Origin: Rhizodiscina lignyota
Taxonomy: Eukaryota
Assembly (NCBI GenBank): GCA_010015805.1
Contig: ML978123.1
Span: forward strand, 1,860,001-1,924,000
Direction: 5' to 3'
Length of the DNA stretch: 64,000 nucleotides
Notes under the pieces: generated by a model
The model's input: only the letters and a program-made list of their open reading frames with translations
What the model was told of the DNA's origin: nothing
Databases searched by the model: none
Translations under genes and position numbers: made by a program
In this document: in pieces, positions 31,915 to 40,979 of the stretch
Numbering within the stretch: the stretch's first letter is position 1
Layout of the letters: every line of letters begins with the position of its first letter

Positions 31915-32565
31915 CTAAGCAGGCATACCGGAAATCGTAGTATCATTGCTTGAGATCCGTCCCCTGATGCGCAGCTCAGTATCACGCAGCACATTTTCCA
32001 TCTGTTCCCTTTCCAGCACTGTCACCATTGAATCCTGGGATAGATCCAAGCTGAAAGAATCAAGACCATGAAAATGCACTGCACTCTCCAGCAGGATATT
32101 TGTGTAGTACCGGACCCACGAATAATTTAGAATCACTATAGTCAATTTTAAGTGCCTAAGCTTTCCTGTCGACCCAAAATTGGCAGCAAGGCAATGAAGT
32201 AAATCTCTCGAGGCTCTTTCAATACAGAGCCGTTTGCTCCGGGTGTGCCAGACATAGGGGCCACGAACGTCAAGTCTTTGTATAGCATCAAGGGTTTGAC
32301 GACCGAAGAGCTCGACAATCCGTTTCATGTCTCCTAGCGTGAAGGAGACAGTTTTTGTGCTGAAGAAGAAATGCAAGGCTTCGTTTCGTATTTGTCGGTT
32401 CGTGTGAATCAAAGTGAAGACATCTCTTGGGTCGGATGACGCAAAGTGGGAAGATCGACATAGGTATAGGTGACTCTCGGGTGCGTAGGATTCGTAAACT
32501 CGAAGTCGGAGTTCGGTGGGGAGATCGAGAAATCGAAAAGGGCTGGCATTTGCATCGCCCGCCAT
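31915..32565 (-). CDS. F-box-like hypothetical protein
   Basis: MAGDANASPFRFLDLPTELRLRVYE and LIHTNRQIRNEA: the FLDLPxELRxxIY ... L..NRQIR.EA pattern of lineage-expanded fungal F-box-like proteins; single exon. Confidence 0.7.
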   Translation of the reverse strand: MAGDANASPFRFLDLPTELRLRVYESYAPESHLYLCRSSHFASSDPRDVFTLIHTNRQIRNEALHFFFSTKTVSFTLGDMKRIVELFGRQTLDAIQRLDVRGPYVWHTRSKRLCIERASRDLLHCLAANFGSTGKLRHLKLTIVILNYSWVRYYTNILLESAVHFHGLDSFSLDLSQDSMVTVLEREQMENVLRDTELRIRGRISSNDTTISGMPA

Positions 32566-33767
32566 TGGTTTTGTAGTTCGACTGTGCTGAGGATAGCTAA
32601 GGTCCACGAAGTGGGGTTGAGGTGAGAAAGTTAGAGAGCTCCGTGTGCTGAAAGGGAAATATTTATAGTATCCCAAATGTGTTATGATGCCAAGGAAGCT
32701 TGACGCTGTTAGTGTTTGTGTTACGTGCGATATTCAACAAGAGGTGAAGAGGAGAAGGTGAGTGTGGAAGAAGCACGGTGAGAGCTGAAGAAACACGAGC
32801 GCCAAAGTTTACAGTAATATCGAAATTCCTTGACACTCCGCGTACCGACCTTCGACTGTGTTTGATTAGCTAAGTGGCGTCATGAGATCTCAAGCAAGTT
32901 GCATAACAACACTGTGTAAAACTATGAACTTCAGAGCTGCACGGCGAGTTCCGCTGGGCCGATTGAGGAAGCCAGTAACACGTTCAATACCAGATAGGAG
33001 AAGCAGGGTCTTCATCTGCAGGCAGAAACACCACGGGCATCAACTTCTCTTGCACAAACCCCCCTGTCCCTGGAAAAGCGTTGAGTCTATCAATACTCTC
33101 CGTGATCCGCGAATGGGAGCTCAGGTCTTCGCCCTCCGTAGCCGCAATCAATTGGACGAGACACCCTCAAGAGGCGGAGGTGAACAGGAGTATCAAGACA
33201 CGACAGCAAAGAACATGCCTCCTTCGGTAGGGACAGCGAAAGAGATCTCAAGTATAACTCTGCGCGAGGCCGTAGATGAAAGTAGACATTGGTACATGAG
33301 CAGTCATTGGTACTGATTTGAACATTCACATACTGGACTGGAAACTTAAAGAGCAGCTAGACTTTAAATTGCATCTCAGCCAGACGTATGACGACGAACG
33401 AGGAAGGGCTTTTGGCGGCAATAGTGCCTTTCAACCACCAGTGTGCCTTGCACTTTTTGTCGGCGGCGATGAAAGCATGTTGATTGCTTCAGGAGTCCGA
33501 TCAAGCCTGCCACTCCTGTTGATTCTCATCGTAAATGGCTCCGAGCTGGACCTATTTCTGGCTGTCGCACTATCAATTTCTCATGTTTCATAAGCAAAGT
33601 TTGAGTATCTGCTGCTGCTCTGTGCGTTGTGGATGTTGACGAGTCACGAGTGTCGGAGATGATGAGGTGATTGAGGAAAGTGTTGCTGCCTAGCGACTCG
33701 CCGCTGATTCGCCCAGCCTCCTCCGAGCGGTCGAGCCCCGCAGCAGCCCAAGCTCTTTTTTCCTCCC

Positions 33768-33774
33768 TATATAA
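33768..33774 (+). promoter_or_regulatory. TATA box of the U1 snRNA gene
   Basis: TATATAA ending ~43 nt upstream of the ATACTT start, with a pyrimidine tract in between. Confidence 0.7.
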
Positions 33775-33816
33775 CCAGCCCTTCCTCCCTTTCGAATCGC
33801 CCTTTCCTTTTCTCTC

Positions 33817-34024
33817 ATACTTGTACGTCAAGTTGCCTCGCCCCCCCGAAAATTTCGAACTTTTTGCTGACAATGCTCACAGACCTTGTTGGGAACACCG
33901 TGATCAAGACGACGGTCGTTCTGTCAGTGCCGCCTGCATTGCACAACGCGGAGTGGCACTGGTATGAATCTCCTTCGGGGGCTTCACCGGCGCAATTTTT
34001 GCTGGCTTCCATCGCAAGATGACC
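33817..34024 (+). ncRNA. U1: U1 spliceosomal snRNA interrupted by a 60-nt spliceosomal intron
   Basis: Exon 1 ATACTT (33817-33822) plus exon 2 ACCTTG.. (33883-) gives AUACUUACCUU; stem-loop I ACCGT-GATCAAGACG-ACGGT (U1-70K loop); loop II ATTGCAC 33938-33944 (U1A site); stem-loop III with C(UUCG)G; Sm site AATTTTTG 33994-34001; stem-loop IV CATC-GCAA-GATG. 3' end approximate. Confidence 0.95.
33823..33882 (+). other. U2-type intron within the U1 snRNA
   Basis: Donor GTACGT, T-tract then branch point GCTGAC 33866-33871, acceptor CACAG ending 33882; size and signals match the mRNA introns in this window. Confidence 0.92.
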
Positions 34025-34649
34025 TCTTTTCATTGATGCTCCTGCCTGGCGTGGGAGGTTGAGGAAGGGATAGGGTTATCAAGCATCGTAGTCTAGCAGT
34101 ATTACATCGATGACAATTCTGGATTAAAGTTCCGCGCCTTATTGTGCAGACATACTGTGATGTTAAGTTCACTTTGATCACCGCGGCTAAGTGGCCACAG
34201 TGGTAACGGTGTGCTACCGACGGTACAGGAATTGAAATATGTACTCTGTCACAAAGTCTACCTACATAGAGTGCGAATTCATTCCCTCATTGGGGTACGA
34301 GCTCATGCGACGCAAATTTGTCTGGTGGTCGAGTATTTGGCATTACGAGGCCACTTTGACCCGAGGGCGATACAGCCCGTGCGTTTCGCTGGACGAAGGA
34401 TGGGTTCTTCACAGCGTTATATTCAGCGTTTAACATGCAGATGCAGACACCACTGCTCCGTCCAGAATTTCATTCCATTTCACCTATCTATTCTATGTGC
34501 ACACCGATACCCAAACGCCAGTTGCCTCGTTTGCGCCGCGGCTCGTAGCAAACTTTTACTTCGGTGCCAAACCTCCCACCAAAAAACGCACAAAGGGTAA
34601 TAGTTACTAGAGTACAAAGAAGCTTCATGAAAGATTACCTCGCTCAATC

Positions 34650-36691
34650 TCAATCCACCTTGATGGAGCCATATATCTTCAGGATGAACACCCACGCTGC
34701 AAAAAAGCCAATTGTGCCTGTAAAGCGTCAGCATTGAGGGTGACTTTCCACAGCATAGGATAAGACTCACCAGTGAGCACAAAGAACAAGAAGCTGATCA
34801 GCATGCTGTATCCTAAATACAGCACACCGCTCGTCCAGCTGGTGAAGCTCAAATCCTTAACCCAATAAATCATCGCGTAGATGAAGACATAGACTGCGCT
34901 TGCCCCCGCCGTGCCGAACGCGCGCCACTGCCAGTGATAGTTCTCCGCACAAAGCAAGAAGTAAATCATGAGAACGGTGATGGCGGCAGACGTGATGATC
35001 ATGAGTCCGAAACAGATAAAGAGGAAGCCGAACATGTAGTACACCTTGCTGAACCAGATACTCTTCATGATGAAGTACAGTTCGACGAAGATGGCACCAA
35101 AGGGCAGGACGCCGGCAAGAAGCATGCTTGGGATGGGGCGCATATATCCACCGCTTGGTGGAATCTGCCTTGGGATTTGGTTCGTCCTTGTGGGCGGGTC
35201 CGCGACGCGTGCCTTGAACCCGAGCCATGAACCAACGACGGACAGCGGTACGCTGATGACGAACCACATGATGACTAGCAGAAGCATGGTTGTGAATGGC
35301 ACAGCGCCAGACGCTCTGCGGGCCCAGACGAAGAGGTTGAGAAGGAAGAACACTGCAAAGACAATGCCGGGCAAGGCAACAGGCGTGTAGGCAAAGTTTT
35401 GTTTCCAAGCATCGCCGCCGAAGAACTTGTACACGCGCGCCGAGACGTAGCCGCCGACGAAGCCAAAGAGTGTGTAGAGGATGATCATTACGGTTCCGAG
35501 GAATCCGCGACTTGATGGACTGAGGAATCCCAGAAGTGCAAAGGCTTTGAGAGGTTAGTGAATTGGGCAGGGGGGAGAGTAGACGCTCTGCATACCAATT
35601 GTGAAACCTGCCATCATGAAAAGCTGCGCTCCGTTACCCACGAGCACACTTAGGAGGAGTGCATGCTTCGGAGGTCTGAAGACGTCTCCATGCACAAGTT
35701 TCCAGCCAGAGTCTTCTTGAACGCCGTCCTCGGCAACGCCAGTGCCTGACAAATCCTCCATTGCAATGTCTAACCGATTGTACCTCGCAAAATCTTTTCG
35801 TAGAGTACGGATGAGGATAGTGGAGACCATGCCAACTAGGAAGACAACGATGACCGCAGAGTTGATGAGGGAGAACCAATGGATACGCGGGTCGTAGACG
35901 TGCAGATACTTGTCCCATCTCGTAGCAAAGGAGGTTGGCGATGAGCGCCAATACACGCCGTACGTGAATGTGACTTCAGTGGGCGCATTGTTTTCCAAAT
36001 ACTGAGGAGTAGCCTCCTCACCACACTCAGCCTTATCCTCACTAATGTACTTGTTGGTTCCTCGTGACGAGGGCTTAACCTCGATTCCAACCACTCGGAA
36101 GGCATCTTTGCTCGCCTGATGGAACTCAACGAGAATGTCGTAGTGATTGTTCAGAATTGGTCTGCCGTCGACGCCCGACCCTAATGGGAACCCAATAGAT
36201 TCGTACAATGTGTCCGTCTGCAAGTCCTTCATGATCTGGCCCGCGGGTAGCCCATCAATCAGCCAGTTGATATCGTAGCCCTGTCGTATCCTCTGGTTTA
36301 CGAATACCGCGTGGTCGGGTTCATATTTCTGACGCTTACACACCGGCTTGCATGTCTCGTTAACACCCATCTTGAGCACGAACGGTGACGTCTGTATGCG
36401 GTCGCCAAAGAGGATGCTGCCTAGCGATTCTGATATCCATTTTGGTCCGTCTTTCGGCGCGCAGAAATGGAAGGCTGGGTGGTAGTAGTCGTAGGCATAG
36501 ACGGAGTGCACCTGCGCTGTGCCTTCTATGTCGGCGGGTGTCAGGGCGTTGACCTGTAATGGCACTTTGTCGCCGAACTTGTAGTTGGTTGGAGCGGCGC
36601 CAGGAAGGTAGAACGCGGACGCTGGAGTAGGTGTGAGGGAGAGGAGGGTAGAGAGCACGGAAAGCGCTGGCTGCGTATCTCGTAGTCTCAT
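34650..36691 (-). CDS. EMP70: Transmembrane 9 superfamily protein (nonaspanin)
   Basis: Signal peptide then FYLPGAAP, SESLGSILFGDRI, RIHWFS, EDSGWKLVHGDVFRPP, TNQIPRQIP, C-terminal IYGSIKVD; two introns. Confidence 0.95.
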
Positions 36692-37243
36692 CTTGCGCGC
36701 CGATTGTGAGCCGTTTGCAAAGCTGACTGCGGAGACGACGTGGAAATCAATCAGGCGCCCCAAATGGGCGGAAAAGCGTCAGCGGCCAGAGCGGTGGAAG
36801 TAAGGAGTGGTTGTTATGATTGACGGCAAGGCAGTTGCTTATAGAATCGGAAGAGAGGGCATATAAGAAAACGTAGTGGTTTCGTGAAGAAAGTTTGTGG
36901 GAAACTTATATGGCATGCGAGAATGAAGCTCGAGTCGTAAAAGTTACAGCTGTACGAATTACATGCCAAGCATTTCGGCGTCAGGGGTCATGCATATCAC
37001 TATTTCTGCAGCCCAGCCTTGGTTCGCCTGGAGAGCTGACATCTTGAGCATCAGGATGTCTTTATTTCTTCTTGTCTCTCATATTTGCATCAAGCTGCGC
37101 CACTCCAAGTGCACGCCATGACAGCGTGTATCGGAAGAACTAGAACTACAGTGCCCTCCCTGCGCCGAAAAAGAATACCTTCAATGCCGTGATATCATGG
37201 GGAAAAAGAGTTGATCGCTTTAGTTTTGGAGACCATGAAAGCA

Positions 37244-38966: not shown

Positions 38967-40199
38967 TCAAGACTTTCCCAATTCGGTAGTTTGCGCTTCG
39001 TTTTCTTCTCCTCCAACCAGAAGAGTCTCTCCAATATCGCACAGTCCAATCTCCTGTCCCCACTTCAGGCCAGCTTTCTCGCAGCACTCTTTCCACTGTT
39101 TTGGCGGCTCGCGTACGTCTTCGTAGTGAGCGGAAAGATTGCCTCTTATGGTGCCGTAATGCATTCCGATACTCCTCCTGCTCCGGACATCCTTATGGAT
39201 GCAAATGGAATCGTCCGGAGAGCAGTGGACGCGTGACATGAACTCCCGGGGCAAGAAGCAGCCGATGGGAAGGAGTGCGAGGTCGAATGGCCCGTACTTG
39301 TCTCCAATCTCTTTGAAGGCGGGACATGCTGGACGACTATTGATGGCTTCTTCACCTCCAGCGACGTCCGCTTCCGTAACAGCTCGGTATGCGGTGTCTC
39401 CTGCGAAGTAAATGTTTCTTCCGCCAACATCTCCACGCTCTTTCAGCACCCATGAGCACCACAGAGAGGAACCCATGCTCGTAGCATTCCTCCCGCTGAA
39501 ATGCTGACTCGGCGTGCACATTAAGGTCATACTTCCGACGCCATTGACCTCCAGAGAGGACTCATCCCACCAATCCAGCTCAGTGACGTCTCCTTCTGCG
39601 ATACCTACGCCGACAAACCACGCCTTCATCCCCAACCCTCCAAAGAAATGCACATTTCCCCGCCCTCGTGTCTTGTACACTTTCAGAATAGTCTCGTAAT
39701 CCAAATGATCGTAATGGTCATGACTTATCACCACGGCATCCACCTCAGGCACTTCTTCGAGGGTACACGGTAGAGGCACAAATCTCTTCGGGCCGCCGAT
39801 GCCTAGTGGTAACGGGCTCATCCGCCCAAAGACAGGATCCAGCAGTAACCTCACGCCTCTAGCGGATGCAGAGGAAGCACTGGTGGAAGTCTCAACGAGG
39901 AAGCTTGCGTGGCCAAACCACGTAGCCTTGAGACCATCTTTGCCTGCGCCCCAATCTGGTTTGCGTACCGTGACGAGTTCCGACGGGTCTGTTGGCACCG
40001 GGACAAAGTTGCGATTCGAGCTGAAGCGTGTTCTCAGCATCTGGCTAAATGAGCTCTTCGTACCGGCGGAAGGCCACGGATTGCGGAATGTAGTCGGCGG
40101 ACTGCCAACATGATGTGCAGGAGGTTCTGATGATTTGACTGCGGACCCGCGGACAGTGACTGCTATCGGACTCTGAGAGGACTTGGATAAAGGCGCCAT
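38967..40199 (-). CDS. NAPE-phospholipase D-like metallo-beta-lactamase
   Basis: FRNPWPS, TWFGHASFL, LDPVF, SHDHYDHLD, PSQHFSGR, YFAGDTAY, ALLPIG, GMHYGT; start at 40199 or 40265. Confidence 0.88.
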   Translation of the reverse strand: MAPLSKSSQSPIAVTVRGSAVKSSEPPAHHVGSPPTTFRNPWPSAGTKSSFSQMLRTRFSSNRNFVPVPTDPSELVTVRKPDWGAGKDGLKATWFGHASFLVETSTSASSASARGVRLLLDPVFGRMSPLPLGIGGPKRFVPLPCTLEEVPEVDAVVISHDHYDHLDYETILKVYKTRGRGNVHFFGGLGMKAWFVGVGIAEGDVTELDWWDESSLEVNGVGSMTLMCTPSQHFSGRNATSMGSSLWCSWVLKERGDVGGRNIYFAGDTAYRAVTEADVAGGEEAINSRPACPAFKEIGDKYGPFDLALLPIGCFLPREFMSRVHCSPDDSICIHKDVRSRRSIGMHYGTIRGNLSAHYEDVREPPKQWKECCEKAGLKWGQEIGLCDIGETLLVGGEENEAQTTELGKS

Positions 40200-40979
40200 T
40201 GTAGAGAAGTGTTGCAGAAACCGGAAACCATTTTCTGAAGAAGTGGAAGATGGTCGTGCTTTCATGTATTCTCGAGCGCAGTTGTTACCCCCGTTTAGGT
40301 TGCGGTCTATGACGACGACCGGAGGATTGCAGCTCTTATATCTCCGATACGTCCGTTGTTTGGAGATACAGATGGAATTGAAAGTTCTTCAATCTTTTAA
40401 ACTTATATCATTGATATTCAATGACATGTTTACTTCTATCGACATAGCTGCGGGAGAAGGCGCATTGGGTCTAATTTGTGGGGCCACTGCTCATACCCAG
40501 TCTATTATGGAATGCCACATCTTAAGACAACCCTGGAGAGTACTTCCACAATTCGTAGCGGGAGTATCTCTGAAAGTCTAACTCATTGGACTGGTCTTTT
40601 GTTGATGCAGCAATGAACTGCGGAATGGCCCTCATATGTTGATGCATATTATCACTATGCTCTTTGAACGTGAGTTTCCGGTCAGAAACTCAACGCCTTC
40701 TAAGCAGGATTGAGAACGAAATTAAAAAGTGCACACTGGCGAATCAGGATGCACGCATATTTATTAAGTGTTAATATGCATCGCTGCAACCTCGCAGCCT
40801 TTAACGCATGAGCAAGAGATGACGCCTAGAAGGAGCATGAAGAAATGAGCCATCGTTACCCGTCGGTCTCATCCTACCATTCACCTAAAGGCGATAGTAC
40901 AAATGCAACACGGCAAGTCATATAGGGCAGTCTGACCACCTCCGTTAGCAATGTCGCAGACACGCTGTCCTCAATCCTA

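Follow-up and report, generated by a model that had tools for sequence, protein, structure and literature searches.

Can a gene for U1 snRNA carry an intron whose removal calls for U1 itself, and, if it can, does the U1 supply of the cell hang on that removal? The question is raised by a locus on the + strand of the window (the whole stretch of 64,000 nt analyzed here), in which a U1 snRNA gene is split by an intron after its nucleotide 6. Exon 1 is ATACTT (33817..33822), equivalent to U1 nucleotides 1–6; the intron is a 60-nt GT..AG intron of the spliceosomal type (33823..33882), identified from the sequence and from an exact 60-letter deletion in a paralogue found in the public run X1; and exon 2 (33883..34070, 188 nt, with an approximate 3′ end) is the U1 body, assigned by the Rfam U1 model, the consensus fold and column mapping. 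An earlier reading of the letters without database searches (the sequence-only reading) had proposed an interruption after nucleotide 6 and a first exon of only 6 nt, and had pointed out that the unspliced precursor would lack the sequence pairing with 5′ splice sites. All three points held: ATACTT is read at 33817–33822, the intron at 33823–33882 separates it from the body by 60 nt, and the Rfam U1 body follows from 33883.

Starting from 33883, the + strand of the window reads ACCTTGTTGGG. The Rfam U1 model (RF00003) matched 33877–34023 on the + strand at 49.1 bits, with E values of 3.2e-11 in a 701-base search and 2.9e-09 in a whole-window search. Model positions 7–166 aligned from 33883 onward, and positions 1–6 (AUACUU) had to be placed on the six letters that end the intron, indicating that the U1 body lacks exactly the six letters standing 60 nt upstream. 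ATACTT fills these model positions left unplaced in the Rfam alignment, an assignment supported by the X1 paralogue, in which ATACTT is fused directly to 33883. When the genomic DNA of the whole window was scanned at the gathering threshold, there were 0 Rfam matches (49.1 bits for the window gene versus 69.5 for the threshold), the deficit lying at model positions 1–6, which are displaced by the intron, so that standard annotation would miss this U1 gene; all Rfam scores given here, for the window gene and for the metagenome loci described below, refer to unspliced genomic DNA only. The window contains a single instance of the pattern of ATACTT followed by GTRNG, then AG joined to ACCT, and then GATCAAGA, whereas 100 dinucleotide shuffles contained none. 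Neither a second U1 copy nor a member of another Rfam family was found in the window by Rfam search and sequence reading. Weak C/D-box-like matches at 33629–33694 (E = 0.87 and 3.9) were taken as chance.

Removal of the 60 nt joins ATACTT to ACCTTG and yields AUACUUACCU, the single-stranded, splice-site-pairing 5′ end that is characteristic of U1. In RNAfold predictions for exon 1 joined to exon 2, the first 8 nt were unpaired, a long-range helix enclosed three stem-loops, and the hairpin at the 3′ end extended to ~34070. The Rfam U1 match, the consensus fold and column mapping together placed stem-loop 1 at 33893–33921 (loop GATCAAGA at 33902–33909), stem-loop 2 at 33922–33964 (loop CATTGCAC at 33937–33944), stem-loop 3 at 33965–33986, the Sm site AATTTTTG at 33994–34001 and the 3′ stem-loop at 34025–34070. 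The U1 hallmarks are all present, namely a GAUCAAGA-type loop on stem-loop 1, a CAUUGCAC loop on stem-loop 2 and an Sm site of the AAUUUUUG form. The 3′ hairpin lies outside the Rfam alignment, which stops at 34023, and the mature U1 is probably ~194 nt long, exceeding the 166-position Rfam model; the likeness between the paralogues in X1 extends to about 34061–34067. This hairpin (34025–34070; columns 154–200 of alignment A2) is conserved among relatives of the gene, with 17 pairs, 5 of which have changes on both sides.

The host was assessed through a neighboring gene for a TM9SF/EMP70 membrane protein (34679–36763, − strand), which is split by a short intron. Its best named relatives, considering long gene models only, were from Botryosphaeriales (Dothideomycetes; 64–69% identity), followed by other Pezizomycotina, and the host is concluded to be a filamentous ascomycete, probably a dothideomycete. 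Other neighbors on the − strand are an ORF with a borderline 2EXR-family match (31915–32676; 23.7 bits versus a Pfam cut-off of 24.8) and a metallo-beta-lactamase-fold protein (38967–40265). None of these neighbors, all of them commonplace fungal genes, has an apparent connection with U1.

Relatives of the split gene were collected by scanning JGI metagenome contigs with the pattern ATACTT-GTRNG-(35–65 nt)-AG-ACCT-(10–25 nt)-GATCAAGA, which detects the intron-bearing form only. The scan yielded 11 loci, nine of which had a full U1 body behind the interruption. L008 and L011, identical to L003, were left out of Rfam scoring, and among the nine loci scored, seven matched Rfam U1 (31.6–50.4 bits), the misses being L005 and L006. 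These two match the whole pattern, have no U1 loops, Sm site or Rfam match, look coding, and were rejected as chance matches; the false-match rate of the search pattern is roughly 2 in 11. The nine true loci comprise five distinct sequences (L001; the closely similar L002, L009 and L010; the identical L003, L008 and L011; L004; L007), which stem from two sample series only, judging from the prefixes of the contig names. All ten intron-bearing genes stand below the Rfam gathering score of 69.5 (seven loci and the window gene were scored, and two are identical to L003), so genome annotations would be expected to under-count U1 genes in these fungi. A scan for the intronless form in a collection of prokaryote genomes gave 0 matches and is not informative on fungi.

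The interruptions of these relatives, 56–69 nt long, are all inserted at the same position in the nine metagenome loci, and their sequences are unrelated. Pairwise identity between distinct lineages was 0.54–0.70 for the introns, which are not alignable (with this scoring, unrelated sequences reach such values), and 0.78–0.91 for the U1 bodies. As a yardstick, Table 3 of PMC2377427 gives 78–94% identity between the U1 genes of one Aspergillus species and another. The conservation of ATACTT, GTRNG, AG and ACCT among the loci reflects ascertainment, since these elements were demanded by the search pattern. The branch motif, not required by the pattern, is informative in this respect: CTRAC was present in 10 out of 10 sequences (the nine loci and the window), with its A located 9–14 nt before YAG, and a branch motif at such a distance is expected by chance at about 0.012 per random intron by a uniform-base estimate. 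On these comparisons the intron position is judged to be genuine and conserved across a group of filamentous ascomycetes.

In the window itself, the donor is GTACGT (33823–33828), the branch motif CTGAC (33867–33871) has its A at 33870, 12 nt before the intron end, and the acceptor is CAG (33880–33882). The intron thus has all the features of a U2-type GT-AG intron, with a donor of the GTRNGT form, CTRAC near the 3′ end, YAG and a length typical of fungi (60 nt). Donors of the relatives were GTAAGT or GTGAGT in seven of the nine loci and GTGAGA in L009, compared to GTACGT in the window. In 5′ splice-site recognition, U1 nucleotides 3–8 face intron positions +6 to +1 as pairing partners. The sequence-only reading had noted that the donor of this intron is itself complementary to the U1 5′ end and that the insertion falls where U1 contacts the 5′ end of introns, and we reproduced both observations: GTACGT is complementary to ACUUAC at 5 of 6 positions, the mismatch being at intron +4, and the insertion is between nucleotides 6 and 7, inside the 3–8 stretch.

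Then, the substitutions in introns and exons were compared within close pairs of intron-bearing genes. Between L002 and L009, 7 of 56 intron positions differed and only 1 of 196 exon positions (Fisher p = 1.3e-4), and the other two close pairs gave p = 1.3e-3 and 9e-4 for intron versus exon differences; as odds ratios, the exons of the relatives vary 8- to 28-fold less than the introns. In the alignment of the U1 body, the loops GATCAAGA and CATTGCAC were identical in all eight aligned sequences, and the Sm site was constant across the eight except for one position, which is C in L003. Among 49 base pairs, 96.9% of the cells were paired, and 15 of the 49 pairs had changed on both sides compared to 5.8 expected, a value attained in 0 of 500 shuffles and exceeding the 1–6 of slid controls, where it should be noted that the pair structure is the RNAalifold prediction from the very alignment used for the count, which favors the structure somewhat. 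The window copy contributes to this picture at one pair of stem-loop 1, where its A-U stands against U-A in the seven other rows, so that pairing is kept by a double change. These patterns point to the selection expected of working genes, and if the intron-bearing genes are under such selection, the intron would have to be removed from their transcripts.

At the RNA level, contigs of the relatives' U1 from three metatranscriptome runs (X16, X22 and X24) cover 33920–34019 only, and splicing of the window copy is predicted from the gene structure. The U1 RNA contigs of relatives in X16 and X22 end at positions corresponding to 34005–34008, i.e. 4–7 nt past the Sm site, and continue into Illumina adapter; therefore, many U1 fragments in these two samples stop shortly after the Sm site and well short of the 3′ hairpin. 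These ends could represent a 3′-trimmed, Sm-protected form of U1 or a library artefact.

The copies of U1 in this genome were counted through the contigs of X1, the only public run that contains most of the stretch (0.78 of sampled words, compared to about 3 of 37 sampled words in each of the other, low-share runs). Its 15,746 contigs sum to 34.2 Mb, the longest being 303 kb, at a depth of about 156, indicating a DNA run of a fungus-sized genome. X1 carries the window locus with 0 differences over 33600–33836, 33807–33907 and 33979–34200, and may be the window's own sample, which is no drawback for counting copies. One record (record 2) is a 21.8-kb contig at a depth of 152 that follows 33746–33822 with 6 differences and then continues directly with 33883. 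In this record the 60 letters from GT to AG are skipped, and record positions 1–58 and 59–135 abut with no letters in between. Since this is a DNA contig, the precise absence of the intron belongs to a paralogous gene and not to an RNA, and we assign record 2 as a U1 gene that lacks the intron and has a homologous promoter. Another record (record 6), an 11.9-kb contig at a depth of 151, matches 33883–33988 and is preceded by a loose end that finishes in ATACTT; its upstream sequence is C/T-rich and unlike that of the window. We assign it as a second intronless U1 gene. Both intronless contigs are at single-copy depth.

The first of these paralogues also bears on the view that there is no intron here at all, in which the upstream ATACTT would be a coincidence and the RNA would start in or after the 60 nt, giving a U1 with a variant 5′ end. 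A gene with a homologous promoter has ATACTT joined exactly to 33883, which argues against coincidence, as do the absence of the pattern from all 100 shuffles and the occurrence of the branch motif at the right distance in every one of the ten sequences; moreover, we know of no function for a U1 without the end that pairs with 5′ splice sites. We regard this view as hardly credible.

The remaining U1 contigs of X1 were resolved by depth and by their connections. A 101-nt contig identical to 33807–33907 has a depth of 240.6, a separate contig joins it at 33807 from an unlike upstream sequence, and the path branches at 33908; the elevated depth together with the extra entry indicates a second locus with identical exon 1 and intron. 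A more diverged U1 body, with 20 differences and 10 gaps over 33876–34061, is located on a 35-kb contig. At position 33910, A is the letter of three contigs, whose depths add up to 450.1, and C accounts for the other 288.8, which fits two further contigs, record 5 (124.7) and one of about 164 inferred by subtraction. From the contig paths and the depths at 33910, the genome is estimated to hold about five U1 loci. Variant letters are shared among the X1 paralogues as a mosaic, with differing trios of contigs at 33910 and 33923 and four contigs at 33957, which suggests gene conversion within the U1 family.

This count answers the second half of the opening question. The sequence-only reading had proposed a self-dependent loop, in which U1 output of the cell is coupled to spliceosome activity, and had itself called for a count of U1 copies, naming additional intronless copies as the outcome that would contradict it. 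By construction, the RNA of the window copy cannot pair with 5′ splice sites before it is spliced, and splicing needs U1. An obligately self-dependent snRNA gene means that every U1 copy carries the intron, and two X1 contigs do not. The proposed count, run on X1, gave exactly the contradicting outcome (about five U1 loci, intronless ones among them), and the loop could not be upheld as a property of the cell: because intronless paralogues coexist with the split gene, the U1 supply of the cell does not depend on this intron, and the loop reading is left without its strongest premise. At most, the output of the window copy, and of the second copy with identical exon 1 and intron, would depend on splicing. 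The stress switch and the snRNPs of altered specificity that the sequence-only reading also envisaged are hypothetical.

We also looked into the sequence upstream of exon 1. A TATA box, TATATAA, is located 49 nt before the U1 start (33768..33774, + strand), CCAAGC is located 69 nt before the start (33748..33753, + strand), and a C/T-rich tract (33783..33816, + strand) ends in TC just before the start A. The stretch 33746–33822 is identical to the promoter of the intronless X1 paralogue at 71 of 77 letters. In four of the six distinct sequences (the window, the L002 group, the L003 group and L007), CCAAGC lies 66–78 nt upstream of ATACTT, and the hexamer is not present upstream in L001 and L004; its recurrence in relatives makes it a candidate proximal promoter element. 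L001, the L002 group, L003 and L007 have an A/T-rich TATA-like motif at a distance of 38–49 nt before the start, and L004 has one at 23 nt. The C/T-rich tract has a counterpart in all nine true loci, and a C/T-rich run also precedes ATACTT in the loose end of an intronless paralogue in X1; a role of the tract in start-site choice is putative. Together, CCAAGC, the C/T-rich tract and the TATA-like box may constitute the snRNA promoter of this fungal group.

If intronless copies suffice for the cell, the window locus might be a dead or dying copy, with all working U1 produced from intronless genes. Besides the presence of such copies in X1, this reading can draw on the letters of the window copy, which has C at 33910 and G at 33923 and departs from its paralogues at several body positions; at 33910, 33923 and 33929, for instance, three contigs each carry the letter found in some relatives. 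It is difficult to reconcile with the 8- to 28-fold lower variation of the relatives' exons compared to their introns and with the covarying stems, and in the window copy itself every stem, both protein-binding loops, the Sm site, the splice signals and the TATA box are intact. A dead copy is, in our estimation, very improbable.

A further possibility is that the intron serves as a control device, i.e. that the intron-bearing copies are selected because their output tracks spliceosome capacity, as feedback or as a stress reserve, beside constitutive intronless copies; unspliced pre-U1 might additionally assemble into inactive particles. The intron position persists in six distinct sequences whose bodies are only 78–91% identical, the loss of the intron is evidently possible since X1 paralogues lack it, and a second X1 locus has the identical stretch 33807–33907 with exon 1 and intron; conservation of the intron across a clade beside intronless copies could thus mean that it is selected. 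The same idea has been raised for U6 paralogues with and without introns in a review (PMC5855946). However, all three splice signals (donor, branch and acceptor) stay close to consensus in every copy, as in a constitutive intron rather than a weak, regulated one, and the persistence can be neutral if paralogues swap sequence by gene conversion, as the mosaic in X1 hints. Overall, control through splicing seems unlikely to us. We likewise assign a low probability to its more specific form, a two-tier U1 family, in a clade of filamentous ascomycetes, in which the intronless genes are constitutive and the split copies are selected so that part of the output follows free splicing capacity. If the two-tier reading were true, splice-site recognition would have a natural homeostat acting on its first step, and it would be proven that six nucleotides between cap and donor are enough of a 5′ exon for a spliceosome.

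We prefer the explanation that the window locus is a working member of the U1 family with the intron as a tolerated passenger, and we consider this explanation as a whole to be quite probable. The locus would be one of a small U1 family (about five loci) in a filamentous ascomycete and would be transcribed from a TATA-containing promoter with a predicted start at A33817. The primary transcript would run from the 6-nt exon 1 through a standard 60-nt intron of the spliceosomal type into the U1 body of 188 nt; excision of the intron by the spliceosome would produce the canonical single-stranded 5′ end, AUACUU followed by ACCUUG, and the spliced RNA would then mature as any U1. Lying between U1 nucleotides 6 and 7, the insertion point is old and common to a clade, the intron being kept in genes whose mature part is under strong purifying and structural selection. 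Most likely, then, the intron is an efficiently spliced, presumably neutral passenger and not a control device.

As to the origin of the intron, the gene shows a feature of snRNA introns of the reverse-splicing type, namely an intron in the part of the snRNA that contacts the pre-mRNA, and the insertion site agrees with the idea of reverse splicing, followed by reverse transcription and recombination, as put forward for U6, U2 and U5. Divergence among the introns of the six distinct sequences is too great for tracing them. According to a review (PMC5855946), U1 leaves before the active site forms, which makes the U1 case awkward for a reverse-splicing account.

Introns in snRNA genes have served for 35 years as clues to the RNAs at the heart of the spliceosome and to the origin of introns. 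The locus described here extends U1 introns to filamentous ascomycetes and places one inside the sequence that pairs with 5′ splice sites, at a position kept across several lineages. Copies with and without the intron, side by side and with homologous promoters, constitute a natural experiment on the function of snRNA introns, and a capped exon 1 of 6 nt is an extreme test of the minimal 5′ exon for the splicing machinery. For U1 introns, we found a single earlier report, from 1996, in which Takahashi, Tani and Ohshima (J Biochem 120:677) are said to have described introns within conserved stretches of the Rhodotorula hasegawae genes for U1 and U5. The U1 gene of R. hasegawae resembles the window gene in having a spliceosomal intron in conserved sequence of a fungal U1 gene, discussed under reverse splicing. 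It differs in that R. hasegawae is a basidiomycete yeast, whereas the host of the window, judging from the neighboring gene, is an ascomycete of Pezizomycotina, and in that the intron position of the window gene is common to six distinct sequences and coexists with intronless paralogues. No description of a U1 intron in ascomycetes was found in the literature searched, whose coverage was mostly without subscription journals, and the U1 intron of filamentous ascomycetes, with its 6-nt first exon, is apparently undescribed so far.

An intron in the U6 snRNA gene of Schizosaccharomyces pombe was reportedly described by Tani and Ohshima in 1989, and Canzler et al. are said to have listed many fungal U6 introns in 2016. 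These U6 introns are alike in being mRNA-type introns within a functionally central snRNA sequence, removed by the machinery to which their own RNA belongs, with canonical signals and unconserved intron sequence. In S. pombe, the sole U6 gene carries the intron, which makes self-dependence obligate there, as stated in the same review (PMC5855946); unlike S. pombe with its U6, the genome of the window has intronless U1 copies. The two RNAs also differ in their roles, since U6 lies at the catalytic center and U1 departs ahead of active-site formation. For the U3 snoRNA genes of fungi, introns were reportedly found by Myslinski in 1990. The fungal U3 genes (Canzler 2017, PMC5832005) are, like the split U1 gene, independently transcribed from TATA promoters, with a capped RNA and a spliceosomal intron near the 5′ end, and they are multi-copy, with paralogues evolving in concert; unlike U1, U3 acts outside the spliceosome, so that no self-reference arises. 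Compared with the canonical intronless U1 (RF00003), the window gene shares the 5′ end, stem-loops 1–3 with their conserved loops, the Sm site and the 3′ hairpin, and it differs in being split after nucleotide 6 and in scoring below the Rfam gathering threshold. The two U1 genes of Aspergillus fumigatus (PMC2377427) are likewise similar to the present one, with genomic spans of ~180 nt compared to ~194 nt here and membership in a small multigene family.
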